NCBI GenBank assembly: GCA_051251855.1
Contig: JBPOGI010000007.1
Coordinates: forward strand, 160,001-224,000
Length of the DNA: 64,000 nucleotides
Source of the DNA: Roseibacillus sp.
Lineage (GTDB): Bacteria > Verrucomicrobiota > Verrucomicrobiia > Verrucomicrobiales > Akkermansiaceae
Direction of reading: 5' to 3'
Shown here: one piece after another, positions 4,783-55,865 of the stretch
Position numbering within the stretch: the first letter of the stretch is position 1
Layout: every line of letters begins with the position of its first letter
Notes under the pieces: generated by a model
Told to the model about the DNA's origin: nothing
The model's input: the letters and a program-made list of their open reading frames with translations, nothing else
The model's database searches: none
Program-made: the position numbers and the translations under genes

Positions 4783-4790
4783 TTTGCACC

Positions 4791-5702
4791 ATGAACTCAT
4801 CTTCGCCCGTCACCCGACGCGCTGCCCTGCTGGCCAAAGTATTCTGCATCTTCCCGATATACTCCGGATGCGGCAATATTGCGAACAAACCATTGTTACA
4901 ATCCTTGCTGCCTGATCCCGGCCCGGTTTGGTGTCGTTGCCGATGGGGCTCGTGGCTCCAATGCTACCTCAATGACTACGTAGGAAACTCCGTCTTCTAC
5001 TTCGGGGACCTCGATCCGAAGCTGAGCTGGATCATGCAAAAAACCCTCCGACCCGGAGACCAGTTTATTGACGTCGGTGCCAATATCGGGCTCCTTACCT
5101 TTTTAGGTTCGCAGCTCGTTGGTGATTCCGGCCGAGTCCTCGCTGTCGAACCTCAACCAAAAGTGATCTCCTGCCTCGAAAATGCCCTCGAACGAAACGA
5201 GAGTAAAAACATCACCCTTGCGCGCTGTGGCGTGGGACAAGAACCCGGACAACTCGACCTTCATGTCCCTGCCGGAAACCTCGGCTCAGCATCCTTCGCC
5301 GAGCTTCCAGGCGAAGCGACCGAAAGCTTCCAGGTTCCCGTGCGGACCCTTACCGACTTGCTCCAAGAGCACGATTTTCAAAGCGCGCGCCTGGTCAAAT
5401 TGGACGTCGAAGACTGGGAAGCCGAAGTGATCGCTGGTGCCGAAGAGGTTTGGAAAGACTCCCCCCCTCCGGGAATCATCTTTGAGTTCCGTGAAAAGAA
5501 GCGCATCCCTGACACCGAAGTCGGCAGACGCTTGACCGCCCTCGGCTATCACTTCTACCGCATCCCCCGCAATTGGTTTCGACCTCAGCTCATACGCAGT
5601 GACGAAGGCTTCTCCAAAGAAGTCACGCACGACGTCTTTGCAGTACACGAGTCCACCTCTTGCTTAGACTTGGGCTTTTCGGAACGAGAAATTGTCGAGT
5701 AG
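4791..5702 (+). CDS. FkbM family methyltransferase
   Basis: FIDVGANIG, VLAVEP and LVKLDVE motifs; ATG at 4791 chosen over the upstream in-frame extension. Confidence 0.85.
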   Translation: MNSSSPVTRRAALLAKVFCIFPIYSGCGNIANKPLLQSLLPDPGPVWCRCRWGSWLQCYLNDYVGNSVFYFGDLDPKLSWIMQKTLRPGDQFIDVGANIGLLTFLGSQLVGDSGRVLAVEPQPKVISCLENALERNESKNITLARCGVGQEPGQLDLHVPAGNLGSASFAELPGEATESFQVPVRTLTDLLQEHDFQSARLVKLDVEDWEAEVIAGAEEVWKDSPPPGIIFEFREKKRIPDTEVGRRLTALGYHFYRIPRNWFRPQLIRSDEGFSKEVTHDVFAVHESTSCLDLGFSEREIVE

Positions 5703-5713
5703 ACTTCCCAAAA

Positions 5714-6145
5714 ATGAATCCAGCCGTTCCCCCTCTCCCCAACAAGGATGATGAACACCTCAAGATTCTTTCGATTTTCCACTACGTTATGGCGGGACTG
5801 TTGGCGCCGACCATTTTCGTTCTCATCGCTCAATTTTTGATGCTGGATAGCCTGATGACGAACCCAGGCTTCTGGGGAGGCAACGCAGACCCTCCTCCTC
5901 AGGAAGCTCTTGGTATTATTCGCGCCTTCTTTGTCGTGACCGGATTTTTCATCCTCCTCATCGTCGTTCTCAACATCCTTTGCGCCCGTGATTTAAGAAC
6001 CAACAACAACCGCACCCTTTCCCTCATTGTTTCAGGTGTCAATTGCCTGAACTTTCCGCTCGGCACCACCCTCGGAGTCTTCACCCTTATTGTTCTCATG
6101 CGCCCTTCAGTCATTCAGCGCTATCAGTTCAAGCAACCCTACTAA
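5714..6145 (+). CDS. Hypothetical membrane protein
   Basis: DEHLKILSIFHYV and NCLNFPLGTTLGVFTLIVL hydrophobic segments; ATG at 5714. Confidence 0.75.
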   Translation: MNPAVPPLPNKDDEHLKILSIFHYVMAGLLAPTIFVLIAQFLMLDSLMTNPGFWGGNADPPPQEALGIIRAFFVVTGFFILLIVVLNILCARDLRTNNNRTLSLIVSGVNCLNFPLGTTLGVFTLIVLMRPSVIQRYQFKQPY

Positions 6146-6250
6146 CTTTTCCTTTTCAGGAAGCGGTCGACTCTTCCTGACCATCAGCAGCCCCCACTCA
6201 CAAGATTCGGACTTGGGGTTTCCCTATCCTTTCCCTAGCCTCTGCCTCAG

Positions 6251-7552
6251 ATGAATTTCCTCGACGCCTCCGCCGTGCTGCTCACCTTGGCCGCACTCTT
6301 TGCCTACTTAAATCACCGCTTCATCAAACTTCCGACAGCCATCGGAATCATGCTCATCGGGCTCTTCTTCAGCATCACCTTCATCCTCTTCGGCGACTTC
6401 ATCCCTGTCATCTCTTCCGCTGCAGATAGATTCGTCGAAGGCATCGACTTCGATACCACCCTCATGCAAGGCATGCTCAGCTACTTGCTCTTTGCGGGAG
6501 CTCTCCATGTCAACCTCAACGACCTCAAGGACCAAAAAGCACTGGTCGCCATCCTCGCCAGCGTGGGCGTCATCTCCTCAACCTTCATGGTCGGAGGGGT
6601 CTTCTACTACCTCTTTCCCCTCTTCGGCTATCAAGTCCCCTTCATTTGGTGCCTTGTCTTCGGTTCCATCGTCTCTCCCACCGATCCAGTTGCCGTATTA
6701 GGAATTCTCAAAAGCGCCAAAGCGCCCAAGACCCTCGAAACCAAAATCACTGGAGAAAGCCTCTTTAACGATGGCGTTGGCGTCGTCGTCTACCTAGCCC
6801 TCCTTGGCCTTGCGGTCAGCGCAGGTGGTCATGGTGATGAGGCCCATGGTGCCCACGGCGACACTGGTGCTATGGGCATCGCCAAACTCTTCGTTTGGGA
6901 AGCCGGGGTTGGGATTCTCTGGGGAGGTGCTCTCGGGCTTGTCGGCTACTTCCTCCTTCGCTCCATCGATAATTATCAGGTCGAAGTGCTTATCACTCTC
7001 GCTCTGGTCACTGGCGGCTATCGGGCTGCTTCCGCAATGCACATTTCTGGCCCCCTTGCCATGGTCGTCGCGGGCCTCATGATCGGCAACCACGGTCGTC
7101 TTCTCGCCATGAGCGACACGACCCGTATCCACCTCGACAAATTCTGGGAACTCATCGACGAAATCCTCAATGCCGTCCTCTTTCTCCTCATTGGTCTCGA
7201 ACTTTTCGTTCTTAAGCTCTCCGGTCCCGCCATCACCGCAGGACTCGTCGCCATTATGATTGGACTCGGCGCTCGCTTTCTTGCGGTCTGGCTCCCTGTC
7301 ACCCTTCTCAAGCGAACACGCACCTTCTCTCCAGGTGTGATTCGAGTCCTCACCTGGGGAGGGATTCGTGGCGGAATCTCTGTTGCCCTCGCCCTTGGGC
7401 TTCCCAAGGACTCCGATTACCGCGACCTCTTTCTCGTCATGACCTATGTCGTCGTCATTTTCTCCATCTCAGTTCAGGGGCTGACGCTTGGTCCTGTCGT
7501 TAGAAAGCTCGTCACTTCTCAATCGGGTCCAGATCCTGAGAATTCTCATTAA
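6251..7552 (+). CDS. Na+/H+ antiporter, CPA1 (NhaP-type)
   Basis: Polytopic; SPTDPVAV, GESLFNDG and WGGIRGGIS motifs. Confidence 0.92.
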   Translation: MNFLDASAVLLTLAALFAYLNHRFIKLPTAIGIMLIGLFFSITFILFGDFIPVISSAADRFVEGIDFDTTLMQGMLSYLLFAGALHVNLNDLKDQKALVAILASVGVISSTFMVGGVFYYLFPLFGYQVPFIWCLVFGSIVSPTDPVAVLGILKSAKAPKTLETKITGESLFNDGVGVVVYLALLGLAVSAGGHGDEAHGAHGDTGAMGIAKLFVWEAGVGILWGGALGLVGYFLLRSIDNYQVEVLITLALVTGGYRAASAMHISGPLAMVVAGLMIGNHGRLLAMSDTTRIHLDKFWELIDEILNAVLFLLIGLELFVLKLSGPAITAGLVAIMIGLGARFLAVWLPVTLLKRTRTFSPGVIRVLTWGGIRGGISVALALGLPKDSDYRDLFLVMTYVVVIFSISVQGLTLGPVVRKLVTSQSGPDPENSH

Positions 7553-7617
7553 TTGAAAATTCCTCGCAAGATTCTCTTGCCAATTTCCCGCTCACCCTTT
7601 AACACTCGCCGCCCACT

Positions 7618-7705
7618 GCTCGGGTGGCGGAATTGGTAGACGCGCCAGACTAAGGATCTGGTGTCCTTTACGGATGTGGGGGTTCGAGTCCCCCCTCGAG
7701 CACCA
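7618..7705 (+). tRNA. tRNA-Leu, anticodon AAG
   Basis: Acceptor stem GCTCGGG/CTCGAGC, D-loop GGAATTGGTAGAC, anticodon stem CCAGA/TCTGG with loop CTAAGGA, long variable arm, T-arm GGGGG-TTCGAGT-CCCCC, discriminator A and encoded CCA. Confidence 0.95.
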
Positions 7706-7713
7706 TCTTTTTT

Positions 7714-7750
7714 GAGGGACTTGTGAAAAATCACAAGTCCCTCTTTTTTT
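7714..7750 (+). terminator. Rho-independent terminator after tRNA-Leu
   Basis: Perfect stem GAGGGACTTGTGA/TCACAAGTCCCTC followed by T7. Confidence 0.85.
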
Positions 7751-7933
7751 GGGCTAATGTCTTCTTCCCCAGAAATCTCAAAACTTATGCACGATATCGA
7801 GCTGGCTAAGTCTGCATTTTGCTCGAAACGACCGCTTTCCACGGCACCCGATAGAGACTCAATATGCGGTATCTGAAGATACTCGGAGCCTGCGAGTCAA
7901 GATTGACACAACGCAAGCAAATCGAGAGCCCTG

Positions 7934-8032
7934 ATGACCACACAAGAGAAAACTAGCGAAGTCATCGACGCGCTCCGCCACGCCTACGAGATGGAAATTG
8001 AAACCGTTGAAAACTATCTGGCCGCTTTTTGA
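7934..8032 (+). pseudogene. Truncated ferritin-like protein N-terminus
   Basis: MTTQEKTSEVIDALRHAYEMEIETVENYLAAF* resembles helix A of ferritin/bacterioferritin-like proteins; stops after 32 aa. Confidence 0.5.
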
Positions 8033-8062
8033 AACAGTCTTGTCAAACTTCTCCGCTTCGCC

Positions 8063-8665
8063 TCAGAAAAGCTCGTCCTGAATGAGTCCTTGAGGCTTCT
8101 TAAGAAGCGGGTTTTCACACTCGCGAATCGTAAGGACTCCCTCAGCTACTTCTTGCAAAACCTCCTCCCCTGATAAATATCTCGCCGAATCCTCGGCACT
8201 TAGAACGACCGGCATGCGATGATGAATCGGTAACACTAACCGATTCGCCATCATCGTAAGCATGGAGAAACAGCGCCCAAATTCCGGCTGCTCTTCCCAT
8301 ATTCCCGCCATCCACAGTAACTCGCCATCAGGGCTCTCAAAACGATAGCTCTGCTTTTTCCCCTCCGGTCCTTTCCATTCAAAATAACCCGCCACCGGAA
8401 TCAAACACCGCCTCGTCTGATAAGACTCCCGCCACATTGAACTCTCCAAATTGTCTACCCGCGAATTATTCACCACCCCTATATTTTTTCGGCGAAAACC
8501 CCAACTCATCATCTCCACCTCTCCATCACTTCTCACAACCGGCGCAGCATCTGTTCGACGAATCAACCGGCGCTCCACAAACGCCTCAAGTTCCTTCACC
8601 GCTTCTTCCTTGAGAGAACCCGAGAAACTCCCTGTTTTCCCCCCCATCTCATAAGCATTGCACAT
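8063..8665 (-). CDS. SOS response-associated peptidase (SRAP/YedK family, abasic-site protection)
   Basis: N-terminal MC, NNSRVD, RRCLIPVAGYFEW and IHHRMPVVL motifs. Confidence 0.92.
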   Translation of the reverse strand: MCNAYEMGGKTGSFSGSLKEEAVKELEAFVERRLIRRTDAAPVVRSDGEVEMMSWGFRRKNIGVVNNSRVDNLESSMWRESYQTRRCLIPVAGYFEWKGPEGKKQSYRFESPDGELLWMAGIWEEQPEFGRCFSMLTMMANRLVLPIHHRMPVVLSAEDSARYLSGEEVLQEVAEGVLTIRECENPLLKKPQGLIQDELF

Positions 8666-8867
8666 CCTACTTTCACTTTAATGCAGTCACTCCTTGGCCG
8701 CCACGCTCAAAAACGATCTTATCGAGTCCAAAAGATAAAAGCGTCTTGCGGATGAGAATTCGTCGCGAGTCTCCTTTCTTCCTGCTAAAAAACAACACCT
8801 GTTCGTCTCAGTGACCACTCCGCAACCTCTGCGACTCTGCGTTGCACGAACCACCCTCTACCCTCTC

Positions 8868-9377
8868 ATGATTCCCGACAACGCCGTCCTCCAGCTCGCC
8901 TCCCTCCTGATTGCCAAAGAACCCACCCCCGACCTCTTAGCTACTCTTCAAAACCCCGCCGTCAGCGAAATACTCATCGCCCTCGAGCCCTCAGCCAAAG
9001 AACTCCTCACCCGCCCTTGGACCGAAAAAGACTACGAAGAAGCCGCCGTCGAATTCTGCCGTCTCTTCATCCTCAACCCCGCCGTCCCTGCTCGCGCTGC
9101 TGCATGGATCGAAGACAAACCCGACGAGATCGCAGGCCGCATCCAATTCATGCTCGACCAAGGCTTCCTCACCCTGCCCGAACCCTATGCCAACCTCACC
9201 CCCGACCACCTCTCCGTCCTCCTCATCATCCAATGCTCTCTAGGCGAAGAAGACGACGGTCAATTCTGGGCCGACAACCTCGCCCCCTGGCTACCACGCT
9301 TCGGTAAAAGGCTCCGCAAAGACTCCCACTCCCCCCTCTACCGCCTCGTCGGTCATCTTCTGAAAACCACCCACTAA
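8868..9377 (+). CDS. TorD/DmsD family molecular chaperone
   Basis: EFCRLF, TPDHLSVLL (E/TPDH motif), LAPWLPRF and HSPLYR pattern; ATG at 8868. Confidence 0.7.
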   Translation: MIPDNAVLQLASLLIAKEPTPDLLATLQNPAVSEILIALEPSAKELLTRPWTEKDYEEAAVEFCRLFILNPAVPARAAAWIEDKPDEIAGRIQFMLDQGFLTLPEPYANLTPDHLSVLLIIQCSLGEEDDGQFWADNLAPWLPRFGKRLRKDSHSPLYRLVGHLLKTTH

Positions 9378-9598
9378 AGGGAGGGCATCGACGGCCCCGC
9401 CGCGCAGCAACTCACCATTGATTAATCCGCAGCTTTTTCTAGTCGCTGAAAAAACGTCTTGGATAGAAGAGACCTCTCTTCCCATCTCACCTTCAGCCTC
9501 AAGAATGAAAGTCCCGTCCGTTTGGAAAAGAAATGGCCTCCCAATAACTAATCAAGCGGTCCGAGCCTATACAGTTCCAGCAATCTAACCTTTCCAAC

Positions 9599-9617
9599 CG
9601 CGACCTATTTTGTCGCG
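9599..9617. promoter_or_regulatory. Putative WYL regulator operator (CGCGAC-N7-GTCGCG)
   Basis: Perfect 6-bp arms with 7-bp spacer, 30 bp upstream of the WYL gene; same geometry as DriD-type CGAC-N7-GTCG boxes. Confidence 0.75.
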
Positions 9618-9646
9618 ACCTCACGGCATCCTGACATCATCACGCT

Positions 9647-10654
9647 ATGCCGCGAGCTTCTCATCAACAGACCATCTACCGCCAATGGCTCATCTTGCGG
9701 AAGCTGACCACCCGTCGCCCGGGAATCACAGCTCGGGAGATGAGGGACTATCTGGAAGGTGAAGACGTCCCCGTCACCAAGCGCACTGTCGAGCGTGACC
9801 TCAACGAACTCTCTCGCATCTTTCCCCTAGAGACCAGCGAAGGTAGCCCGCCCATCGGCTGGCGTTGGCGTAAGGATGCGGTGCAAGAGTTGCCGGGGCT
9901 CGAGCTCGTTGATGCGCTTTCCCTCTCGCTGGTGGGAGACCTTCTCAACCAAACCCTCCCCGCCAGTCTTCACCCCTCGATCAGCGCCCGCGTGGCCGAG
10001 GCTAGGGGCAAGCTGGATGCCCTTCCCAATCACTCCGTGTCCGCTTGGTCTCAAATGGCGCGCTACCTTCCGCCCGGCCAAGTGCTCCTCAAACCCACCG
10101 TCGACCCCGACATCTTGCATGCCGTCGAGGAAGGACTGGTAGGACAACGGCAACTCAGCGTCTGCTATCAAGCTCCCGCTGCATCCGAAGCATGGAGCAC
10201 TCACATGCACCCGGTGGCGCTTCTCTCTCATGGCTCTACCCCCTACCTGTTAGCGAGCCTAGGGAAAGGAACCGAAATCTGGCAATATCCCCTACACCGC
10301 TTCCTATCAGCCGAGCTCACTGAGACTCCTTCCTGGCGACCACCCGGCTTCGAACTCGACGAGTTCCTCGCGCAAGGACAGGCCAGCTTTGGAAAAGGAA
10401 AAACAATCCGCCTCGAAGCCCAGCTTGACGAATCACTCGCCAAGCTTCTTCGGGAAACTCCGCTCACGGACTCCCAAACCATTCGCGAAAAAGACGGTCG
10501 CTTCCTCCTCAAGGCCTCCGTTCAATATTCCTGGCAGTTGGTCTTCTACATTCTCTCGCAAGGCCCCAAGATCACCGTCCTCAAGCCCAAGTCCCTTCGC
10601 AACGAAATCATCGCCAGCCTTCAGTCCGCCCTCCAGAACTACAACCCGTCCTAA
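9647..10654 (+). CDS. wHTH-WYL-WCX transcriptional regulator (BrxR/CapW/DriD-like)
   Basis: HTH VTKRTVERDLNEL; WYL-like HPVALLSHGSTPYLLA...YPLHRF; WCX-like ILSQGPKITVLKPKSLRNEI. Confidence 0.92.
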   Translation: MPRASHQQTIYRQWLILRKLTTRRPGITAREMRDYLEGEDVPVTKRTVERDLNELSRIFPLETSEGSPPIGWRWRKDAVQELPGLELVDALSLSLVGDLLNQTLPASLHPSISARVAEARGKLDALPNHSVSAWSQMARYLPPGQVLLKPTVDPDILHAVEEGLVGQRQLSVCYQAPAASEAWSTHMHPVALLSHGSTPYLLASLGKGTEIWQYPLHRFLSAELTETPSWRPPGFELDEFLAQGQASFGKGKTIRLEAQLDESLAKLLRETPLTDSQTIREKDGRFLLKASVQYSWQLVFYILSQGPKITVLKPKSLRNEIIASLQSALQNYNPS

Positions 10655-10658
10655 TTCC

Positions 10659-12170
10659 ATGCGCCAACTCTCCAAATCCAAGATCATCGCCTTCCGTCAA
10701 TGCCCCAAACGGCTCTGGCTCGAACTCCATCGCCCGGAACTCCGCGACGACTCCGGCAGCGAGTTCGCTTTCGCAGTCGGCAATCAAGTCGGAGACATTG
10801 CTCACCTCATCTACGACCCCGAACAAAAGGGCCAGCTCATCGACATCCAGGAGATGGGATGGGACACCGCCTACTCAGTCACCGCCGATTGGTTAGCGGA
10901 CCAAGAGGCCCCACTTTTCGAAGCCGCACTCCGCATGCGCGGCGGGATCGCCCTCGCCGACGTCATGCTGCCCCAACGCGATCAGAACGGACTCCAATGG
11001 AACATGATTGAAGTCAAAGCCTCCACTGGTCCCAAGGACTACCACCACGACGACATCGCGGTGCAAGCCTACGTCGCCCGCGAGTCAGGAATCCCGCTCT
11101 CAAAAGTCTCCTTAGCCCACGTCGATATCACCTTCGTCTACCCGGGAAGCGGCGACTACCAAGGCCTGCTCAAGGAAGTCGACATGACTGAAGAAGCCAG
11201 CTCTCGGACAGCGGAAGTCGCGGGCTGGTTCGACGAAGCCCAAGCCATCGCCGCCCAAACAGAAGAGCCTCGCATCGAGCCCGGCCCGCAATGCCATAGC
11301 CCTTTCACCTGCGGGTTCTGCAAGCACTGCATTCCCGAAAAACCTCTCATGGACTACCCTCTCACCTCCTTCTATCGACTGGGTGCTGCAGGCATCGAAA
11401 CACTCGAGGCCGCTGGCTACAACGACGTGCGAGACGTGCCCGCCGACCAGCTCAGCTTCATCAACCAGCGCATCCGAGAGCACACCATCAGCGGCGAAGC
11501 CTACTTCGACCAAAAAGGAGCGGCCGGCGACCTTGCCAAACACCGGGGCGAGCCCCGCTTCCTCGACTTCGAGACCATCGCCTTCCCCGTCCCCATCTGG
11601 GCCGGCACGCGCCCCTATCAGCAGCTCCCCTTCCAATTCAGCCTTCACCACTTGGAGCGCTCTGGCGAAGTCCATCACCGCGAATGCCTCGACACCTCCG
11701 GAGACGATCCCCGCCCCGCCATCATCAAAGCCCTTCTCGACCACTGTGGCGACTCCGGGGACAGTGGCCCCATCTTCGCCTACAATGCCCCCTTCGAGAA
11801 AAAGGTCATCAAAGACCTCATCACCGCCTTCCCCGTGGAAGCCATCGGCCTCACCAATATCCTCAGCCGCATCGAAGACCTCCTCCCCATCGCCCGCAAA
11901 CGCTACTACCATCCCAGCCAACACGGCAGCTGGAGCATCAAAGCGGTCCTTCCCGCCATCTGCCCGGACCTCAGCTACAACGACCTCGAAGGCGTGCAAG
12001 ACGGAATGATGGCCCAACAAAGCTACCTCGAAGCCATCGCCCCCACCACCAACCCCGAGCGCCGCGAAGAAATCCACAAACAACTCCTCGCCTACTGCCT
12101 GCTCGACACCCTCGGCCTCGTAAGAATGTGGCAATTTTTTAAGAGCCAGCCCCTATCCAGAAACGCATGA
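10659..12170 (+). CDS. DUF2779 protein: Cas4-like PD-(D/E)XK nuclease fused to an RNase H-like exonuclease
   Basis: LSKSK...QCPKRLWL, ADVM...IEVKAST, Cys cluster CHSPFTCGFCKHC, FLDFET, YNAPFE, SIKAVLP, YCLLDT; ATG at 10659. Confidence 0.85.
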   Translation: MRQLSKSKIIAFRQCPKRLWLELHRPELRDDSGSEFAFAVGNQVGDIAHLIYDPEQKGQLIDIQEMGWDTAYSVTADWLADQEAPLFEAALRMRGGIALADVMLPQRDQNGLQWNMIEVKASTGPKDYHHDDIAVQAYVARESGIPLSKVSLAHVDITFVYPGSGDYQGLLKEVDMTEEASSRTAEVAGWFDEAQAIAAQTEEPRIEPGPQCHSPFTCGFCKHCIPEKPLMDYPLTSFYRLGAAGIETLEAAGYNDVRDVPADQLSFINQRIREHTISGEAYFDQKGAAGDLAKHRGEPRFLDFETIAFPVPIWAGTRPYQQLPFQFSLHHLERSGEVHHRECLDTSGDDPRPAIIKALLDHCGDSGDSGPIFAYNAPFEKKVIKDLITAFPVEAIGLTNILSRIEDLLPIARKRYYHPSQHGSWSIKAVLPAICPDLSYNDLEGVQDGMMAQQSYLEAIAPTTNPERREEIHKQLLAYCLLDTLGLVRMWQFFKSQPLSRNA

Positions 12171-13363
12171 ACAACCTTCAAACCGAAATTAGCCATCTCC
12201 TTATCAAAACCGAAGAAATATGCCGACGCTTCGAAGAGGTAGAGAAAACGACCGGAGCCGGATTTAACCTCCTCCATCTTCTCAACATGGGTCACTACGA
12301 AGCAAAAACTCACACCCCCATTTTGACAGACCTTCTGAACCCTCAGGGTTCGCACGGTCAAGGTGACGTCTTTCTCAAATTGTTTCTTACAGTGTGCTTC
12401 GAGAAAGACTTAGGCTTTATGTCGAAAGCCTCCGGGATCGTGGTCACGGAGGAAAAATACATCGGACGAGTAAATAGCGAACAAGCGTCTGGGGGTAGAA
12501 TAGACATTTTCTTAGAGTCATCACAAGGTGAACTCCTAGCCATCGAGAACAAAATCTACGCTAACGAACAGGACCAACAACTGCAACGCTATCTCAACTA
12601 CGTGAGCAGAGCCAAAGAGAACGGACGCGTTATCTACCTCACCCTCGACGGCCAAGAACCCGGTTCCATCAAAGGTAACAAGCCTGAAATTCTCTCGTGT
12701 ATCTCCTATCAATCACACATCGTCGACTGGCTCCGACTCTGTCGCAAAGAGGTCACAACGATTCCCACGATTCGCGAATCCCTCACAATCTATATCAACC
12801 TCATTTGCGAACTCACCAACCAAAGCCCCAACCAAGAAATGAATAAAGAGATTATGGAGTCAGTGTTAGAATCGCCTAGTAGTTTAGCGGCATACCTCGC
12901 TCTTCCGAAGGAAAATGAAATCCAGCAGTCCATCTTTGACAATAAAGTTGAAGAGATAAAACGGATTGCAAAAGAGCATTCGCTAGGCTTCTCGTTGTCC
13001 GAAAAAAAAGTAGCGGACCAGTATTTTGGTTTCAATTTAAAGTCCGAAAGCTGGTCAGATTTTTGGATCTGCTTCAACTTTGATAGCGCAAATTGTAAAA
13101 ACCTATTATTTGGATTTCAAGACGATGGTAGGCTTATTGAAGAAGAGCGGCAAACACTCAACCAAATGGTCTCGTCTCAATTTGGTGAAAGCACTGTTAG
13201 GAAAACCAAAATGTGGCCAGCTTGTCCGTTTTGGACAAAATATAGGAATTGGCACGGTGAAACTCTATCAGAAGTCGCTTACGGCAGCTTTCTCGAAGAT
13301 TTGGAAGAACAAGTGGCAACTTTCAAAAAGCTCGGTGACGAATTCGCAAGAACGACGCACTAG
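12167..13363 (+). CDS. PD-(D/E)XK nuclease family protein (PDDEXK_4-like)
   Basis: LLNPQGSHGQGDVFL, GRIDI...AIENKIYANEQDQQLQRY, IYLTLDG; ATGA overlap with the upstream gene. Confidence 0.88.
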   Translation: MNNLQTEISHLLIKTEEICRRFEEVEKTTGAGFNLLHLLNMGHYEAKTHTPILTDLLNPQGSHGQGDVFLKLFLTVCFEKDLGFMSKASGIVVTEEKYIGRVNSEQASGGRIDIFLESSQGELLAIENKIYANEQDQQLQRYLNYVSRAKENGRVIYLTLDGQEPGSIKGNKPEILSCISYQSHIVDWLRLCRKEVTTIPTIRESLTIYINLICELTNQSPNQEMNKEIMESVLESPSSLAAYLALPKENEIQQSIFDNKVEEIKRIAKEHSLGFSLSEKKVADQYFGFNLKSESWSDFWICFNFDSANCKNLLFGFQDDGRLIEEERQTLNQMVSSQFGESTVRKTKMWPACPFWTKYRNWHGETLSEVAYGSFLEDLEEQVATFKKLGDEFARTTH

Positions 13364-20582: not shown

Positions 20583-23324
20583 ATGGCTCTCCAAAGATTC
20601 AGCTCCAGACGCGAACGGCTCTTCGATGCCTTCCTCTCGAAACGTTTACCAGAAGCCACGAGCTATGACCGCATCGCGGGCTACTTTCAGTCTAGTCTTC
20701 TTTCTCTAGCAGCCGAGGAGTTCAAGGCCATCAAAACGGTCCGTATCGTCTGCAATACGGAGGTCAATCCAGCTGATGTCCATGCCGTCCGACAAGCGGT
20801 CGGTCCGAGACAAGAAGAGTTGCAAGCAGCCCTCCTTCGCATGGTCTGGAACAATGGGAACTTTCCACACGTCGTCGACGTCTACGGAGAGAAAGCAAAG
20901 AAGAGACTGCGCCTCTTGCAAGACCTCATAAAAGGCGATCCCAAAACTGGTCGCAGCTTGGAAATCCGCATCGTGCCCGACAGTGAGTTTGGCTTCATCC
21001 ACGGCAAAGCCGGAGTGCTTCGTTATCCAGACGGCAAAGCGACCTCCTTCATGGGAAGTGCAAACGATACTCGGCGTGCTTGGATGGAAAACTACGAACT
21101 CGTCTGGGAAGATGACGAGCCTGAAAGTGTTGCTTGGGTGCAGGAAGAGTTCGACGCCCTCTGGGACCGAGGCTTCCCCATCAGTGAGTTCATCGTCAAG
21201 CAGATGGGCCGTCTAGGAGAACGAACGGTAATCGAACACGTAGGCTCCTGGCAGCAGAAGCCAGAGATTGCCGCCGTCCTCGCCGAAGTTCCCACCTGCA
21301 CCGAGTTGTTCGGATTTTGGGACCACCAGAAATACTTTATCAAGAAGGCCTTCGACGAACATCGTCTCTACCAAAAGCAATCTGGCCGGGGTGCCCGCTT
21401 CCTGCTTGCGGATGGTGTAGGACTAGGAAAAACCCTCCAGCTTGGCGGACTTGCCAAATTGATCGGAACTCTCGATAAGGAGCCTATTCTCATCATTGCC
21501 CCCAAGGCGGTCGTGAGCCAGTGGCAGGAAGAGATGATGGACAAGCTAGCGGCCCCCAGCGCGGTCTGGACCGGCAAAGGCTGGCTCACCGAGCGAGACG
21601 AATTCCACCCTGCTACCGAAGACGATGTCACCAACTGCCCACGCAAGATCGCCATCGTTCCCACCTCCGTCATTCTCAGCGCTGCGAGAAGCAAATTGAA
21701 CGGCAAGCTCACCGAAGACCTTCTGAAGATGAAGTTCAGCTGTGTGCTATGGGACGAAGCTCACAAGATCCGTCGCTCCAACCTCAAGGAGCCAAAAGTC
21801 TGGCAAACACCCGAGAAGAACCTCCTCTACGATTGGGCGCTCAAACTCTCCAAGCAAACCAAGTCCATGGTCTTGGCTACTGCTACCCCAGTGCAAATCC
21901 ATCCGGTGGAACTTTGGGACCTCCTCGCTGTCTTAGCAGAGGGAAACCCTCAGGTCCTCGGCTCGGACTTGAGCCGGTGGAAGGATGCCACCAATCCGGT
22001 AATGTTCGACATTCTAGCCGGTCGCGTGAAGGTGGAGAATCCTTACGAGAAATGGGAATGGTGGAAAGATCCTGTTCCCGGAGAAGAAGAACGAGACGTC
22101 TTCCGGCTCATCCGAAGTTCATTGGAGCTAGCAGCGACCAAAGACACCGCAGTAAATGCTGACTTCGACGAAATCGATGAATTTGATCGAGACGAACTCG
22201 CTCAAATTGATTTACGAGAACTTAACCCCTTCACCATTCGGGTCATCAAGCGCTCCCGGGAACGCCTGGAGCAAGAGGGTAAACTTGTCAAAATTGAGCT
22301 GGTAGCCGTGGACGACGAGCGCCCAGTAGTCTCCACCCATAGTGTCCGGCAAGCGCTGGAGCTGGCGGAAGAATTTTCACAAGAACTCTACGAAAAAACA
22401 AAGGCTGCTGGCTTCATTAATACTGGCCTGCAACGGCGTGTCGGTAGCTCAGTCTATGCCGGGCTCAAAACCGCCGAACGCATGCTCGAAGAGAAAGATG
22501 TCGAGGACGAAGAAGGATTGGACGAAACAGGAGAAAGCCTTTATCCTCTAACTGAAGTCGAAAGAGAATTGTTAGAACGCCTCCGTGGTCACCTGGCGAG
22601 ACAATGGGAACAAGAGGGCGATCCCAAATTCGACCGTATTCTAGAGACCTTGACCTCGGACTTTGAAGGAGAGACCTGGTTGAAACTAGGAGCTCTTGTC
22701 TTCAGCCAATACTACGACTCCGCTTTCGCGCTTTGTGAGTTTCTTGCCAAAAACTTGGATATCCCTATTGGCCTCTATGCGAGTTCCAGTTCATCAAAAC
22801 TCTTTGAAGATGGGAAGGTGCAATCTGTCGATCGGGATCTACTCAAGGAAAAGGTCAAAACTGGAGTCCTCAAGCTCATGGTAGGAACTGATGCCGCAAG
22901 TACAGGCCTAAACCTACAAACCCTTGGCAGCCTCATCAACCTCGACCTCCCTTGGAACCCCACGACCCTTGAGCAACGGAAAGGCCGGGTGCAGCGAGGA
23001 ACCATGGGCAAGAGAATCCCCTTCTGCAACCTACGTTACGATGAAGGGGTCGAGCAAAGACTCTTCAACGTTCTGACCGGTCGGATCCAGGAGATCACCA
23101 ACATCTTTGGCACCGTCCCAGACTTCATCACCGACCGCTGGGTCACCGACATGCTGGAAAATCGCGACCTGAAGGAAAGCGACCTCGTCACCCTCATCTC
23201 CGACCAAGAAACCAGCCCCTTTAGCGTCAAAGAGACCTACGAGTATCTCGATGAAGAATGGGAAAACACCGCCGAGGTCCTCAACTCCCGAGAAGCAGTC
23301 GCGGTGTTCTTAAATGGCTGGTAA
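20583..23324 (+). CDS. PLD-like nuclease-SNF2 helicase fusion (restriction-like system)
   Basis: YDRIAGYF, FIHGKAG...GSAN (HKD-like), LLADGVGLGKT, WDEAHK, LATATP, GLNLQ, DLPWNPTTLEQRKGRVQR. Confidence 0.9.
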   Translation: MALQRFSSRRERLFDAFLSKRLPEATSYDRIAGYFQSSLLSLAAEEFKAIKTVRIVCNTEVNPADVHAVRQAVGPRQEELQAALLRMVWNNGNFPHVVDVYGEKAKKRLRLLQDLIKGDPKTGRSLEIRIVPDSEFGFIHGKAGVLRYPDGKATSFMGSANDTRRAWMENYELVWEDDEPESVAWVQEEFDALWDRGFPISEFIVKQMGRLGERTVIEHVGSWQQKPEIAAVLAEVPTCTELFGFWDHQKYFIKKAFDEHRLYQKQSGRGARFLLADGVGLGKTLQLGGLAKLIGTLDKEPILIIAPKAVVSQWQEEMMDKLAAPSAVWTGKGWLTERDEFHPATEDDVTNCPRKIAIVPTSVILSAARSKLNGKLTEDLLKMKFSCVLWDEAHKIRRSNLKEPKVWQTPEKNLLYDWALKLSKQTKSMVLATATPVQIHPVELWDLLAVLAEGNPQVLGSDLSRWKDATNPVMFDILAGRVKVENPYEKWEWWKDPVPGEEERDVFRLIRSSLELAATKDTAVNADFDEIDEFDRDELAQIDLRELNPFTIRVIKRSRERLEQEGKLVKIELVAVDDERPVVSTHSVRQALELAEEFSQELYEKTKAAGFINTGLQRRVGSSVYAGLKTAERMLEEKDVEDEEGLDETGESLYPLTEVERELLERLRGHLARQWEQEGDPKFDRILETLTSDFEGETWLKLGALVFSQYYDSAFALCEFLAKNLDIPIGLYASSSSSKLFEDGKVQSVDRDLLKEKVKTGVLKLMVGTDAASTGLNLQTLGSLINLDLPWNPTTLEQRKGRVQRGTMGKRIPFCNLRYDEGVEQRLFNVLTGRIQEITNIFGTVPDFITDRWVTDMLENRDLKESDLVTLISDQETSPFSVKETYEYLDEEWENTAEVLNSREAVAVFLNGW

Positions 23325-30577: not shown

Positions 30578-32023
30578 TCAGCCCAAGTCAGGCCGACCGT
30601 AAAGCGTATAGCCTGTCGAATCATCGACCTGAACATCGAAAATCTCGCCAGTCATACGCTCCACATCGCCATCAAAGATGACGATTTTATTGTGCACCGT
30701 ACGTCCACTCAGCCTGGCCTTGTTCGTCTTGCTTGGCCCCTCGCAAAGGACCTGCTGACGGGTTCCAATGAGAGCAGCATTCTTAGCCGTGGTGAGTTCA
30801 TTCTGAACACGAAGAAGCTCCTGATTCCGCTCCTCCTTCACCTTCTCAGAGAGCTGCCCCTCCATCTCAGATGCCGGCGTGTCTTTGCGCTTCGAATAGC
30901 GAAAGATGAAACTATTATCGAAGCCAATATGCTTCACACAATCGACCGTCGCTTGGAAGTCTTCTTCTGTTTCGGTCGGGAAGCCCACGATGATGTCGGT
31001 AGTGATCGCCATATCAGGCCGAGCCGCTTGCATTTTTTCACAAATCGCAATGAACTTCTCATTCTTGTAAGGACGACGCATCGCCTTCAAAATCCGGTCA
31101 CTACCACTTTGCATCGGAAAGTGAATGTGCGAACAAAGCTTGGGGAGGTAGGTGAACGCCGCCACCAAATCATCCCGATAACCAATCGGATGTGGACTCG
31201 TAAATCGAATACGCTCGATACCTTCCACCTCATGCACAGCCTCTAACAACTGCACGAATGGTGACTTACCATCGACCTTAGGAAACTCGGTTCGGCCATA
31301 GAGATTTACAATTTGCCCCAGCAAAGTAATTTCCTTCACCCCTTCGTCACGAAGGTGCTTCACCTCATCGACAATCTGGGTGATGGGACGCCCCCGCTCC
31401 TTTCCTCGAGTGTCTGGGACGATGCAAAAACTACAACGCATGTTGCAACCTTGCATGATGCTCACGAAAGAACTCGCCCTCTTCTCAGCAGAAGGGACAT
31501 GGTCACGGATCGTATTCTGGCTTCCGTCTTCCTCTTCAATATCGACCAGCCCCTCAGAAACAGGCTTAGGTTTACCGTTACTGCCCAAAGGACGAATGTG
31601 AACTTCTTCTTCCACTCGCGAGGTCACCATCTCAGCTCCGACCTCATCCATCCGACCCACCAGACGAGTTTTGAGAATCCCATCCACATGGTGAAAAACT
31701 CGGTGATACTTCTGAGTCCCCACCACGACATCGAGATGAGGGATCCTATCAAAAAGCTCCGCTCCTCGGCTCTGAGCCATGCAGCCCATAAATCCGTAGA
31801 CTACATGGGGCCGCTCCTCGCGGTGCTTCCCCATCATCCCCATCTTGCCCAAGGCCTTTTGCTCCGCCTGATCCCGCACCGAGCAGGTGTTTACCAGAAT
31901 GGCATCGGCATCGGTTTCATCCTTCGTCAGAGTGTAGCCTCCGTCCACGAACTCACGAGCAACCTGCTCGGAGTCGCGTTCGTTCATCTGTCATCCGTAG
32001 GTCTTAATAAATACTTTCGGCAT
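30578..32023 (-). CDS. miaB: tRNA-2-methylthio-N6-dimethylallyladenosine synthase MiaB, with in-frame TGA at codon 11
   Basis: MPKVFIKTYG*QMNERDSE, NTCSVR, GCMAQ, radical SAM CNMRCSFC, RFTSPHP, TDIIVGFP, C-terminal TRAM domain. Confidence 0.93.
31947..31983 (-). promoter_or_regulatory. SECIS-like mRNA hairpin 3' of the miaB UGA
   Basis: mRNA ACGAACGCGACUC-CGAGCA-GGU-UGCUCG-U-GAGUUCGU; the apical GGU loop starts 26 nt after the UGA. Confidence 0.6.
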
Positions 32024-32092
32024 AATAGCGGGACGGGAGGCTATAACCCTTCACCGAGAAAACTCAATCGCGAAGGAATAAGAAAACGACGC

Positions 32093-32127
32093 AAAAAAAG
32101 AGAGCAGAGGATCACTCCCCTGCTCTC
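32093..32127 (-). terminator. Rho-independent terminator of the OMP gene
   Basis: GAGAGCAG...CTGCTCTC stem with A7 on the + strand (U-tract on -). Confidence 0.7.
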
Positions 32128-32153
32128 AGTTAAATTAAACCAGGCGGTCTACT

Positions 32154-32765
32154 TTAGAAGTAGAAGCGCATTCCGATCTCGACGTTGGTGAGGCTGTCAC
32201 CAATCTCGTCTGCAACGCCGAAGACGTCAGAAGGAGACCAAGAATAGTTCACGCCAGCATAGACAGCCATGTGTGAACGGATGAAGTACTTAACGCCGAG
32301 CTCTCCAGAGAAAGCGAAGCCGTCGTTGCCCAACACCTCTTCGGTACCGACAAAGCGGTCACCTGAAGCTGCGTATGAAGCACCGAAACCAACGTAAGGA
32401 ACCCACTTGGAGCCGGTTGCGAAGTTGTACTCAGTGAAAAGACCGAAGCGGCTATCGCGAAGGATGTCACCGTCTTCACCTGCCCAGTCGACAGAGAAAC
32501 CGAACTCCCAGTTGTCCTGGATGAACCAACCGTAAGTCATGTTGAGATCCCAAGCGACACCGTCGTTGAGGTCAACGCTTCCGCCGATACCGAGTTCTTG
32601 AGTTCCCGCTGCAAGCATTGGGAGAGAGTTGTCACTGACGTTCATGAAGCCAGAGTTTCCGCCAGCCTGCTGGAGACCGACACCGTCATCAACGACACCA
32701 CCTGCAAAAGCAGTGGTAGCGGTCGCGATTGTTCCTGCGACGAGGAGTGTTGCGTATTTTTTCAT
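32154..32765 (-). CDS. Outer-membrane beta-barrel protein (8-stranded type)
   Basis: Signal peptide, WVPYVGFG, ELGVKYF, C-terminal GMRFYF. Confidence 0.85.
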   Translation of the reverse strand: MKKYATLLVAGTIATATTAFAGGVVDDGVGLQQAGGNSGFMNVSDNSLPMLAAGTQELGIGGSVDLNDGVAWDLNMTYGWFIQDNWEFGFSVDWAGEDGDILRDSRFGLFTEYNFATGSKWVPYVGFGASYAASGDRFVGTEEVLGNDGFAFSGELGVKYFIRSHMAVYAGVNYSWSPSDVFGVADEIGDSLTNVEIGMRFYF

Positions 32766-53095: not shown

Positions 53096-54580
53096 CTAGA
53101 GACCCAACTGCAGCTGATAGAAGAGTCGAGGCTCGCTGGGGTCAAAGGCACCCAACTCTCTCCGAGTGATCCCGTATCGAGGATAACTATACGGTCCATA
53201 TTCGTTATCCGAGGAAGTCATCGGTAAGGAAGCCTTCTCGCGCACTCGGAACTGAGTCACGCTTCCTTTCAGGGCATAAAGCACCACCATACCGTCCTCA
53301 ATGCGCAGCTCAGGAATATCAGGAAGCGAGGGAATCACGGTCAATTCGGCATCCTCATCCCATATCGCCACATCATTCGAAATCCCCTTAGATAGCTCCC
53401 ATCCTCGCGAAAACCCACCGCCGACGAAAACTCGATCATTACCATCGATTCCGATACAATTGACGATTTGCGAACCAGTGGAGCCCAGTCCCGATCCCAT
53501 CGACTTCCAAGAACCGCTATCATTCCAATACGCAACATGATTCGCATCGCCCACTGCTCCGCCAACGGTCGTCTGAATATCGCCCCCGACATAAACCTTC
53601 CCCGTAGAATCAATTTCTAAATCATAGACGCCATCCGCCACGAAAGTGAGACCATTCGATTGCTCGTAGTCTGGTCCAAAACCGCCGTCCAACCCATCCC
53701 ATGTCCCTGTCAAAGGGTCGTAAGCCGCCACATCCCCAGCAGCCAGATTCGATGCTCCCACGGTGCTGAAACTGCCTCCCACAAAAATCCGTCCATCAGG
53801 ATGTCTTGCCATCGTGCGAATGACTCCCGATCCCCCGATATCCACCCCTCCCGCATAGGTGCTCCAAGCTGAACCATCCCAACGCTTAAAGCCATCCGCA
53901 GTCCGAGTCGCTGCCAATAAGTCCCCGTTGGGAAGAATCAACAAGTCATCCACAATCCCGCCAGTGCCAGTTCCGATGGCCTCCCAGGTCCCGGTGCTCA
54001 CACTATTCCCCGCCCCCAATTCGTAGCGCAAAATGTAGCGCTCATTCGTGGGGTTCGCTCCATTGGTGAAATTGCCTCCGACATAAATGTAATTGGCATC
54101 GCTCGCGATAGCCAACACTCGGCCATCCACAGGACCATTGTCCCAATCGTCATTCGCTAGATTCGAGCTCGGATCAAAGAGAGCTTCCCAAGTATTGTTC
54201 GTGGGATTGAATCTTACAATTCGCCGCGCCTCCGTTTCAGCAGGGAAAGCAAAGTTCCCCCCAAAGAAAATGAAGCCATTCGCATCTTCATAAATCTCAT
54301 CAACCCGACCACCAATATCCTGAAAGACATTGGGCACATCGAGTCCCGGCACATTCTCCCACTGCTCGGTCGCATAATTGTAGCGAGTCAAATCCTCTTC
54401 ATTCGCATTTCCCCCGGCCGAAATCAAAAGCCCTCCCATATAGAGATGAGTATCGGTGCTCAGCATCGCAAAAGGCTCTCCTCGATGATCGGTTTCATCA
54501 TAGAACCAATGCTGGTCATCAGCAACTTGGGCAGACAGAGAAGTCACAAGCGAGGCCGTGAAGATAAGAGACAATTTCAT
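53096..54580 (-). CDS. Secreted beta-propeller protein (kelch/galactose-oxidase-like blades)
   Basis: Signal MKLSLIFTASLVTSLSA; repeated (I/V)YVGG.F and W..(L/I/M)G.G blades. Confidence 0.8.
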   Translation of the reverse strand: MKLSLIFTASLVTSLSAQVADDQHWFYDETDHRGEPFAMLSTDTHLYMGGLLISAGGNANEEDLTRYNYATEQWENVPGLDVPNVFQDIGGRVDEIYEDANGFIFFGGNFAFPAETEARRIVRFNPTNNTWEALFDPSSNLANDDWDNGPVDGRVLAIASDANYIYVGGNFTNGANPTNERYILRYELGAGNSVSTGTWEAIGTGTGGIVDDLLILPNGDLLAATRTADGFKRWDGSAWSTYAGGVDIGGSGVIRTMARHPDGRIFVGGSFSTVGASNLAAGDVAAYDPLTGTWDGLDGGFGPDYEQSNGLTFVADGVYDLEIDSTGKVYVGGDIQTTVGGAVGDANHVAYWNDSGSWKSMGSGLGSTGSQIVNCIGIDGNDRVFVGGGFSRGWELSKGISNDVAIWDEDAELTVIPSLPDIPELRIEDGMVVLYALKGSVTQFRVREKASLPMTSSDNEYGPYSYPRYGITRRELGAFDPSEPRLFYQLQLGL

Positions 54581-54764
54581 AAAATAGAGCGGTTGTTGTA
54601 AAAAGAAGCTGCAAAAGACAGCTTCCTCATCCTCTACTAGCGAAGTTTCCACCCTAAAATTACAGAAAAAGTTCGGATTTTTTCCTAACCATCCGCGAAC
54701 GAAGTCGAAATGAACAAACAAAACCTTTGCGCTCGTCGCACTCTTTGAGGTGAATAAACACTCG

Positions 54765-55865
54765 ATGCCCTCCCCGCCACGCGCTTGCGCCGAGATTGAC
54801 CTCTCAGCCCTCGACCATAATCTCGCCTTCGCTCGTCGTCATTCCGGCCAGCAAGTCATGGCTGTATTGAAGGCTGGAGCCTACGGACACGGCCTCTCCA
54901 AACTCGCCAAACACCTCGACAACCAAAGCCTCCCCTACTTTGGCGTCGCCAATGTTCATGAAGCCCGCCTCCTGGCTGACGACGGAATTCAGACTCCCAT
55001 CTACCTCCTTGGAGCCTCCTTCCCGGAAGAACGCGAAGAGATCGTGCAACGTGGCTGGACCCCTTGCCTCTCCTCCCTCGCAGAAATTGACGACTTCTCA
55101 CAGCTCTGCACCAAACAGGAAAAAGTCCTCTCAGCACACCTCGCTATCGATACTGGCATGGGTCGCGGTGGTTTCCTCCCCGGAAAAGTCGCCAGCGCCC
55201 TCGACCACCTCGCCCTTCCTCAAAACAAGTCAATCCAGCTAAAAGGAGTCGGCTCTCACCTTCCCTCCGCTGACGAAGACGAAACCTTCACCAAAGCACA
55301 ATTCGACACCTTCGACCAACTCGTCACCGAACACTTTTCCCAAGAGCGGAACTTTCACATCCACCTCTCTAACAGCGCCGGACTCCTCGACTACCAATCT
55401 AGGACTACCAATCTCATACGCCCCGGCCTCATGCTCTACGGAGTCTCCCCGCTACCCGATTGGCAAAAGGAGTTACGCCCCGTCATGTCGCTGAAGTCCC
55501 GCGTCTCCCTCGTCCGTAGTCTCCCCGCTGGCCACGGCGTCAGCTACGGTCGCACCAGCATTCTCGAAAGAGACACCGCTGTCGCCACCATCGGCGTTGG
55601 CTATGGCGACGGCTATCCCCGCAACGTCTCCGGTCAAGGAGCCCACATCCTCATCAACGGCCAAAAAGCCCCCCTCCTCGGTCGCGTCACTATGGACCAA
55701 ATCATGGCCGACGTCTCCCACCTCCCCAGCTGCCAGCCAGGTGACGAAGTCGAGCTCTTCGGCCCCAACCTCCCCGTTGCCCAAGTGGCCGACTGGGCCA
55801 ACACCATCCCCTGGGAAGTCCTCACCCGCATCACCCCTAGGGTCTCACGCCAGTATTCGTCCTAA
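54765..55865 (+). CDS. alr: Alanine racemase
   Basis: AVLKAGAYGHG (PLP Lys), DTGMGR, RPGLMLYG, GYGDG, GRVTMDQ. Confidence 0.95.
   Translation: MPSPPRACAEIDLSALDHNLAFARRHSGQQVMAVLKAGAYGHGLSKLAKHLDNQSLPYFGVANVHEARLLADDGIQTPIYLLGASFPEEREEIVQRGWTPCLSSLAEIDDFSQLCTKQEKVLSAHLAIDTGMGRGGFLPGKVASALDHLALPQNKSIQLKGVGSHLPSADEDETFTKAQFDTFDQLVTEHFSQERNFHIHLSNSAGLLDYQSRTTNLIRPGLMLYGVSPLPDWQKELRPVMSLKSRVSLVRSLPAGHGVSYGRTSILERDTAVATIGVGYGDGYPRNVSGQGAHILINGQKAPLLGRVTMDQIMADVSHLPSCQPGDEVELFGPNLPVAQVADWANTIPWEVLTRITPRVSRQYSS

Follow-up and report, generated by a model that had tools for sequence, protein, structure and literature searches.

The 64,000-nt stretch of DNA examined here, hereafter called the window, comes from Roseibacillus sp. 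(Verrucomicrobiota; Akkermansiaceae; GenBank assembly GCA_051251855.1, contig JBPOGI010000007.1, positions 160,001 to 224,000 of the forward strand) and carries on its minus strand a miaB gene interrupted at codon 11 by an in-frame UGA. Judged from the sequence evidence, this gene very probably encodes a genuine selenocysteine (Sec)-containing MiaB, in which SelB-dependent insertion of Sec at codon 11 would give a full-length protein with Sec as a ligand of its auxiliary [4Fe-4S] cluster. The UGA and a hairpin that follows it, the conservation of both, a Sec machinery in the same genome, the co-occurrence of TGA with selA and the alignment of residue 11 with a conserved N-terminal cysteine are all direct observations. 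An earlier note on this DNA, made from its letters and a list of its open reading frames (ORFs), had offered a MiaB selenoprotein with Sec at the cluster ligand as its first explanation, and this is supported by the Sec machinery, the alternation of TGA with TGC or TGT among relatives, the hairpin conservation and the link to selA described below.

It is proposed that translation would start at the ATG at 32023 and that Sec-tRNA(Sec) would decode the UGA at codon 11 as selenocysteine, being delivered by SelB bound to a GGU-loop hairpin that starts 15 nt downstream within the coding sequence. Translation would then continue to the normal stop, the product being full-length MiaB, the C2-methylthiotransferase acting on N6-isopentenyladenosine at position 37 of tRNA (i6A37). 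In this protein Sec would replace the first of the three cysteines holding the N-terminal auxiliary [4Fe-4S] cluster, the putative carrier of the transferred sulfur or methylthio group.

Gene structure and authenticity of the UGA codon

The minus strand reads ATG CCG AAA GTA TTT ATT AAG ACC TAC GGA TGA CAG ATG AAC at the start of miaB, bearing out the in-frame TGA near the start (31991-31993) that the earlier note had reported, and the frame is intact on either side of it. As that note had also recognized, the mechanical ORF list misses the 5' end and begins the gene at a later Met (30578..31987, 469 aa). Its statement that the rest of the gene is intact agrees with the 481-codon read-through frame, the translation of which scores 448.9 bits against the MiaB equivalog TIGR01574 of NCBIfam (cut-off 355.3) and falls below threshold for both MtaB (316.5, cut-off 357.05) and RimO (296.3, cut-off 356.95). 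The Pfam domains of the read-through protein are UPF0004 (PF00919, residues 3-102), Radical_SAM (PF04055, 187-361) and TRAM (PF01938, 419-477). The main features of the gene are as follows.

30578..32023, minus strand: miaB coding sequence through the internal UGA, 481 residues plus the terminal TGA stop at 30580-30578 (from the translation, TIGR01574 and Pfam)
32021..32023, minus strand: start codon ATG, ten codons 5' of the UGA; among 79 distinct TGA-form sequences the start is ATG in 67 and GTG in 12
31991..31993, minus strand: UGA codon 11, predicted to be read as Sec, replacing the first Cys of TYGCQMN; TGA or TGY in relatives, aligned with Cys27 of 7mjv_A
31883..31885, minus strand: codon of Cys47 (NTCSVR), second position of the N-terminal cluster triad, aligned with Cys63 of 7mjv_A
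31781..31783, minus strand: codon of Cys81 (GCMAQ), third position of the N-terminal cluster triad, aligned with Cys97 of 7mjv_A
31424..31447, minus strand: radical S-adenosylmethionine (SAM) motif CxxxCxxC (CNMRCSFC, residues 193-200), within the Pfam Radical_SAM match

The i6A substrate is made by MiaA, and the presence of miaA in the window's genome (TIGR00174, 217.8 bits, cut-off 148.65; G000:C1:704847-705650) supports a functional context for MiaB.

Two runs from which the assembly may derive gave contigs with uniform letters at the TGA (word depth 28.9 and ~4,500-13,000), and a 214-nt contig from a different study, corresponding to 31921-32134, is identical across the site. The earlier note had held that a TGC or TGT in the underlying data would mark the TGA as a sequencing error; neither codon occurs at the site in assemblies from the two studies. 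Genome-wide reassignment of UGA was rejected, as UGA is an ordinary stop that ends 364 of the 1595 open frames of at least 400 codons in the window's genome and ends miaB too.

A conserved stem-loop within the coding sequence

Downstream of the UGA the RNA forms a 14-bp stem that is interrupted by two single-U bulges and capped by a GGU triloop (-23.7 kcal/mol), the first G of the loop being the 27th nucleotide after the UGA, which corresponds to a spacing of 26 nt. The two elements concerned are located as follows.

31946..31978, minus strand: hairpin resembling a selenocysteine insertion sequence (SECIS) in the coding sequence, codons 16-26 (from the fold and comparative pairing)
31962..31964, minus strand: apical loop GGU, 26 nt after the UGA; G30, G31 and T32 are invariant in 73 of 73 distinct TGA-form sequences

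The ACUC-CGAGCA-GGU stem-loop, the G in its loop and the 26-nt spacing given in the earlier note all stand, whereas the extension by ACGAAC/GUUCGU that it proposed is only a rough match, the lower stem of the fold being CGCGA/UCGUG with a bulge. The bSECISearch criteria for bacterial elements are a G or U in the apical loop and a loop situated 16-37 nt downstream of the UGA, and the miaB GGU loop, at 26 nt, lies within that range.

Third bases were compared between 79 distinct TGA-form 5' ends and 20 Cys forms. Codons 2, 4 and 7-10 specify a single amino acid in all 79 TGA forms, yet their third bases are variable (Pro2 uses all four codons); this synonymous variation with retention of the amino acids argues that translation of the protein includes the ten codons preceding the UGA. 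Past the UGA, at codons 19-23, the situation is reversed, the third-base entropy in the TGA forms being 0, 0, 0.43, 0.77 and 0.55 bit vs 1.19, 0.99, 1.35, 1.81 and 1.78 bit for the same codons in the Cys forms. These codons in the TGA forms are GAG and CAG (79/79 each), GTT (74/79), GCT in 61 or GCC in 18, and lastly a codon with a third base that is mostly G, while most of the other TGA-form third positions (codons 2-9 and 24-50) lie at ~0.8-2.0 bits, with one at 0.55. The pattern with which the sequences were retrieved constrained codons 8-14 only, so the low entropy at codons 19-23 is not caused by it. The conserved peptide encoded here is S-E-Q-V-A-R/Q, and apart from its R/Q alternation the hairpin is made wholly by synonymous choices. 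In L010 and L011, the closest Cys relatives (92% identical protein), the only differences in the hairpin codons are CAG>CAA, GTT>GTG and CGT>CGC, synonymous changes by which the loop becomes AGU and loses its closing pair.

Helix pairing was computed on 73 distinct 72-nt TGA-form segments, to which the pair numbers given here refer. The apical 8-bp helix is 94.0% paired in the TGA forms, against 21.6-45.0% when the partner strand is slid, and for the 20 Cys forms the figure is 55.0%, a level not above that of shuffles (423/500). Pair 24-38 is compensatory (CG 23, UA 22, UG 20, other 8), with 22 cells changed on both sides, a count found in 1 of 500 shuffles. The hairpin covariation for which the earlier note had proposed a test was seen as synonymous-site conservation in the TGA forms only, accompanied by one compensatory pair.

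A Cys form designated L031 (TGC; L031:1135-1206, genome G019), which comes from a selA-positive genome, retains an intact hairpin core (GAGCAGGTTGCTCGG) and looks like a recent Sec-to-Cys change.

Selenocysteine decoding machinery and its co-occurrence with the TGA form

The window's genome (4.96 Mb in 13 contigs, 95.4% complete) contains the Sec machinery that the earlier note had proposed to look for, comprising selA (376.5 bits), a SelB winged-helix domain within a 754-aa frame, selD with its own in-frame TGA (SSCAG-U-ASK; G000:C7:93121-94050 (+)) and a 94-nt tRNA-Sec with anticodon TCA. The latter carries A36-A37-A38, which is the MiaA determinant. Family searches for in-frame TGA codons detected four further candidate selenoprotein genes in this genome.

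G000:C1:1402835-1403575, plus strand: FdhA-like, CSRA-U-HAP
G000:C9:34842-35024, minus strand: Rdx/SelW-like, CSK-U
G000:C8:303718-304071, plus strand: AhpC/TSA-like (Prx-like)
G000:C1:1177195-1177512, minus strand: AhpC/TSA-like (Prx-like); its fold is without a G/U-containing loop

The FdhA-like, Rdx-like and one of the Prx-like genes, together with selD, have hairpins with G/U-containing loops 18-32 nt past the UGA, a set that accommodates the miaB loop, GGU at 26 nt; GGUCU is the loop sequence of both the FdhA-like gene and selD. A genome scan for GCAGGT-N0-2-TGC with an in-frame TGA upstream gave 96 sites, of which only selD and miaB lie in long frames. This motif is too narrow to detect the other candidates, which is why those came from the family searches.

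Whether TGA tracks the sel genes, as the earlier note had suggested it might, was assessed in 401 genomes of the same family, 388 of which were found to contain miaB. The motif GG-N TGA CAR ATG AAY ... was detected in 101 of the 401, once in each, while the reversed control gave 0, and selA was detected in 124. Both were present in 96 genomes, the TGA motif only in 5, selA only in 28 and neither in 272, such that selA accompanies 96 of the 101 TGA forms and 272 of the 277 selA-negative genomes are without the TGA motif; the genomes are related, and these counts are therefore given without a significance test.

The genes selA and miaB share a contig, only ~3-7 kb apart, in several genomes from two other genera (G019:C35:68169-69536 and 72867-73973; G128:C58:17087 and 21697-22803; G151:C52:7843 and 2203-3306; G079:C6:47748 and 54508-55614), and the two genes are on different contigs in the window's genome.

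Phylogenetic distribution of the TGA and Cys forms

The alternation of TGA with TGY at a single codon, which the earlier note had proposed to look for, is evident among 30 loci from 41 related genomes, where codon 11 is TGA in 10 and TGC or TGT in 20, always within TYG-x-QMN. Per genus, and leaving aside the window's genome, the TGA motif was found in 5/8, 1/1, 2/2, 37/42, 17/25, 26/31 and 12/20 genomes of seven genera of the family, in 0/102, 0/102, 0/35, 0/16 and 0/6 of five others, and in none of the eight small genera that remain. Among 201 genomes sampled from the order, one with the motif lay outside the family (1/52 in a family designated f3), and there was none among 96 genomes of six other families.

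A tree was built from 30 full-length MiaB sequences with the codon-11 columns excluded. The Sec/Cys label requires at least five changes on this tree, four of which are forced by well-supported branches, and when the Sec form of f3 is added it groups with an f3 Cys form (Shimodaira-Hasegawa-like approximate likelihood ratio test, SH-aLRT, 99) and the changes become 6. Repeated exchange of Sec and Cys is typical for selenoprotein families.

A pattern scan of 185,579 species genomes returned at least 120 loci; 81 of those listed are true miaB 5' ends with TGA and 39 are unrelated, the chance matches expected for this pattern in that much DNA being of the order of a hundred by the authors' own arithmetic. 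Among the matches listed, 78 of the 81 TGA miaB ends are of the verrucomicrobial type, mostly labelled Akkermansiaceae, Roseibacillus, Rubritalea or Oceaniferula, and they include the cultured Rubritalea profundi SAORIC-165 (L098), which has both the TGA form and selA. Three TGA ends, those of L089 (a Hyphomicrobiales metagenome-assembled genome, MAG), L111 (a Ca. Enterousia MAG) and L128 (a Terriglobus MAG), were set aside as probable errors or pseudogenes, being without the hairpin core and from genomes, of unstated completeness, in which no selA was found. L063 (labelled Vicinamibacteria) and L141 (labelled Bacterium) carry a Sec-miaB 5' end of the verrucomicrobial type, which suggests a mis-binned contig or a loose label. 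One TGA-form miaB and one Cys form have an extra in-frame TAA (G196:C73:3893-5317 and G257:C25:8594-9955, respectively) and are possibly broken copies or assembly errors.

Residue 11 as a predicted ligand of the auxiliary cluster

In methylthiotransferases the auxiliary [4Fe-4S] cluster is bound by three conserved N-terminal cysteines, and a sulfide on its fourth iron is thought to be methylated and then transferred; whether the role of the cluster is sacrificial or that of a carrier is debated (PMC5372745, available text). The best match of the window's MiaB in the Protein Data Bank is Bacteroides uniformis MiaB (7mjv_A, E 8.4e-91), with query residues 3-107 aligned to residues 19-122 of the chain, gapless until the last few positions. 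U11, C47 and C81 therefore correspond to Cys27, Cys63 and Cys97 of 7mjv_A, and they are the only Cys or Sec positions in the N-terminal domain. The second and third positions of the triad are Cys and the first is UGA, so that the triad is complete only if the UGA is read as Sec or Cys.

Compared with 7mjv_A, the linker that joins the N-terminal domain to the radical-SAM domain (MiaB residues 108-165; window 31526-31702, minus strand) has ~39 additional residues, query 107-166 corresponding to chain 122-142. MiaB is 481 aa in the window's genus, 450-464 aa in most other relatives and 482-502 aa in the related Sec forms L015 and L014.

Points against a selenocysteine-containing MiaB and competing explanations

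Several observations weigh against the proposed Sec-containing MiaB. The evidence comes from sequence, from which selenium incorporation is predicted; Sec insertion at codon 11, ligation of the cluster by Sec and any resulting advantage are inferred. Cys27, Cys63 and Cys97 are presumably the auxiliary cluster ligands in 7MJV, an assignment that was assumed here. The single-sequence fold is modestly better than chance (z = -2.06, with 6 of 200 shuffles as good), so that the case for the hairpin depends on the comparative support. No Rfam family was found for the hairpin in a scan of 31850-32100 at E values up to 10, in which TLS-PK6 (E 0.46) and osmY (E 0.67) were noise. Only the apical 8 bp are common across genera, the lower stem being different, and a bulged U in the window's genus shifts the register of the hairpin. 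Non-standard pairs occur at 26-36 in 15/73 segments and at 24-38 in 8/73, and the aligned TGA-form sequences are related and hence not independent. The spacing of 26 nt exceeds that of E. coli fdhF, reportedly 18 nt from UGA to loop, although it is within the 18-32 nt of the genome's own set. Lastly, 5 of the 101 TGA genomes are without a detected selA; their completeness is 72, 83, 83, 86 and 89%.

Of the explanations that dispense with Sec, the one that survives best, and which is nevertheless very improbable, is Sec-independent readthrough of the UGA, for example by tRNA-Trp or tRNA-Cys carrying 2-methylthio-i6A (ms2i6A), through which MiaB would feed back on its own synthesis. The A36-A37-A38 of the genome's tRNA-Sec, as the MiaA determinant, is compatible with such a circuit. 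In the available text of PMC5699536, ms2i6A is listed as an aid to decoding Trp codons and the nonsense codon UGA, which also speaks for it, but E. coli tRNA-Sec is listed there as carrying i6A37 and not ms2i6A, which weakens a feedback loop via tRNA-Sec. The earlier note had proposed this circuit only for a genome lacking Sec machinery; the machinery here is complete, and the proposal is not needed. Furthermore, the TGA form is almost confined to selA-positive genomes (96/101), the GGU of the hairpin is common to the GGUCU loops of the genome's selD and FdhA-like genes, and a Trp at the position of a cluster ligand would mean a dead enzyme.

Still less credible is re-initiation, in which the UGA would end a 10-residue leader peptide and the enzyme would be made from the AUG two codons on (Met13). 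An ATG does stand directly past the UGA (TGA CAG ATG), and both the ORF list and public databases begin the protein there, as in the 469-aa entries P0004 and P0011, which start MNERDSE. Met13 is, however, part of the QMN motif found in every Cys-form relative and is thus not a special start, and a protein beginning at it would lose the first of its only three N-terminal Cys/Sec positions. The ten upstream codons keep the amino acids of the Cys forms under synonymous change, and re-initiation accounts for neither the frozen hairpin nor the link to selA.

A nonsense mutation, pseudogene or sequencing error, a picture that the TGA ends of L089, L111 and L128 outside the clade do fit, is excluded for the window's clade by the identity of the site in deep assemblies and a second study, the occurrence of the same codon in 101/401 family genomes, the intact frame on both sides and the purifying selection upstream and downstream.

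Relation to known systems and implications

The predicted Sec-containing MiaB shares with Cys-type MiaB (TIGR01574; B. uniformis 7MJV-7MJZ) the three domains, the CxxxCxxC motif and the TYG-x-QMN, NTC and GCM motifs, and differs in the UGA (Sec) at the first cluster position, the conserved mRNA hairpin and the longer linker (by ~39 residues relative to 7mjv_A). As in bacterial SelB/SECIS recoding, of which E. coli fdhF is said to be the prototype, a UGA within the coding sequence is followed by a stem-loop with G/U in the loop, selA, selB, selC and selD are present, and Cys homologues exist. Unlike fdhF, the miaB element has a GGU loop on a GAGCA/UGCUC stem, a spacing of 26 nt and a UGA near the start at codon 11, and binding of SelB to it is predicted.

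TIGR04167 (rSAM_SeCys) and TrsS (NF045646) are likewise members of the radical-SAM superfamily predicted to contain Sec (PMC13188914, available text), but they are separate families and neither is among the 24 NCBIfam families matched by MiaB. Sec in place of a metal-binding Cys is also a feature of FdhA (Mo/W) and [NiFeSe] hydrogenase (Ni), whereas in MiaB the metal site would be a methylthiotransferase's auxiliary [4Fe-4S] cluster, itself a participant in the transfer of sulfur. Binding of atoms or chemical groups is predicted for approximately 20% of selenoprotein families, ~70% of these interactions being with metals or with groups derived from metals, Fe-S clusters for example (PMC13188914, available text).

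MiaB is absent from the 2026 table of 119 prokaryotic selenoprotein families (PMC13188914, Table 1), and the available text of the same paper contains no occurrence of MiaB, methylthio, methylthiotransferase, TIGR01574, TIGR00089, PF00919 or isopentenyl; MiaB does not occur in the available part of a 2022 selenoprotein review either. A search mainly of the open literature, with subscription journals largely outside its scope, found no report on a Sec-containing MiaB, and in the literature examined there was no experimental case of Sec on the cluster of a sulfur-transferring methylthiotransferase. In the protein collection searched, the closest entries listed are 95-98% identical, 469 aa in length and begin MNERDSE, P0004 and P0011 among them matching TGA-form loci. 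The database entries matched to TGA-form genes start at Met13 and are without the cluster ligand, and the full-length entries among the matches listed are at most 90% identical, the best, P0002, having Cys at residue 11.

If Sec is inserted, MiaB would be a selenoprotein family missed by current lists, employing UGA/SECIS recoding of an established kind, and it would not be rare, the motif being found in 101 of the 401 genomes sampled from one verrucomicrobial family. Selenium would then sit on the auxiliary iron-sulfur cluster of an enzyme that is both a radical-SAM methylthiotransferase and a tRNA modifier, and such a natural ligand would help in studying whether that cluster is sacrificial or a carrier. 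Synthesis of MiaB, and hence the ms2 step of ms2i6A37, would then depend on selenium supply, tying a translation-fidelity modification to selenium. The cultured R. profundi SAORIC-165 makes the proposal testable at the bench. As to the benefit of the substitution, it is conceivable, though rather unlikely, that the Sec ligand is functional, improving the oxygen tolerance of the cluster or the speed with which it is rebuilt in these aerobic marine bacteria and rendering the ms2 step of ms2i6A37, and with it UNN-codon decoding, selenium-dependent. A bolder form of this suggestion is that selenium at the cluster alters the transferred group, which would yield a methylseleno adenosine.

Neighbouring sequence features

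A 292-codon open frame lies antisense to the 5' part of miaB (window 31313-32191, plus strand) and is probably a shadow of the coding strand. The interval between miaB and an upstream beta-barrel-like gene (32154-32765) contains an inverted repeat, rich in G+C, with a run of T after it (agagcagggg...cctctgctctcttttttt; window 32095-32135, minus strand). This arrangement resembles an intrinsic terminator, suggesting that miaB probably has its own promoter in the ~70-nt gap.

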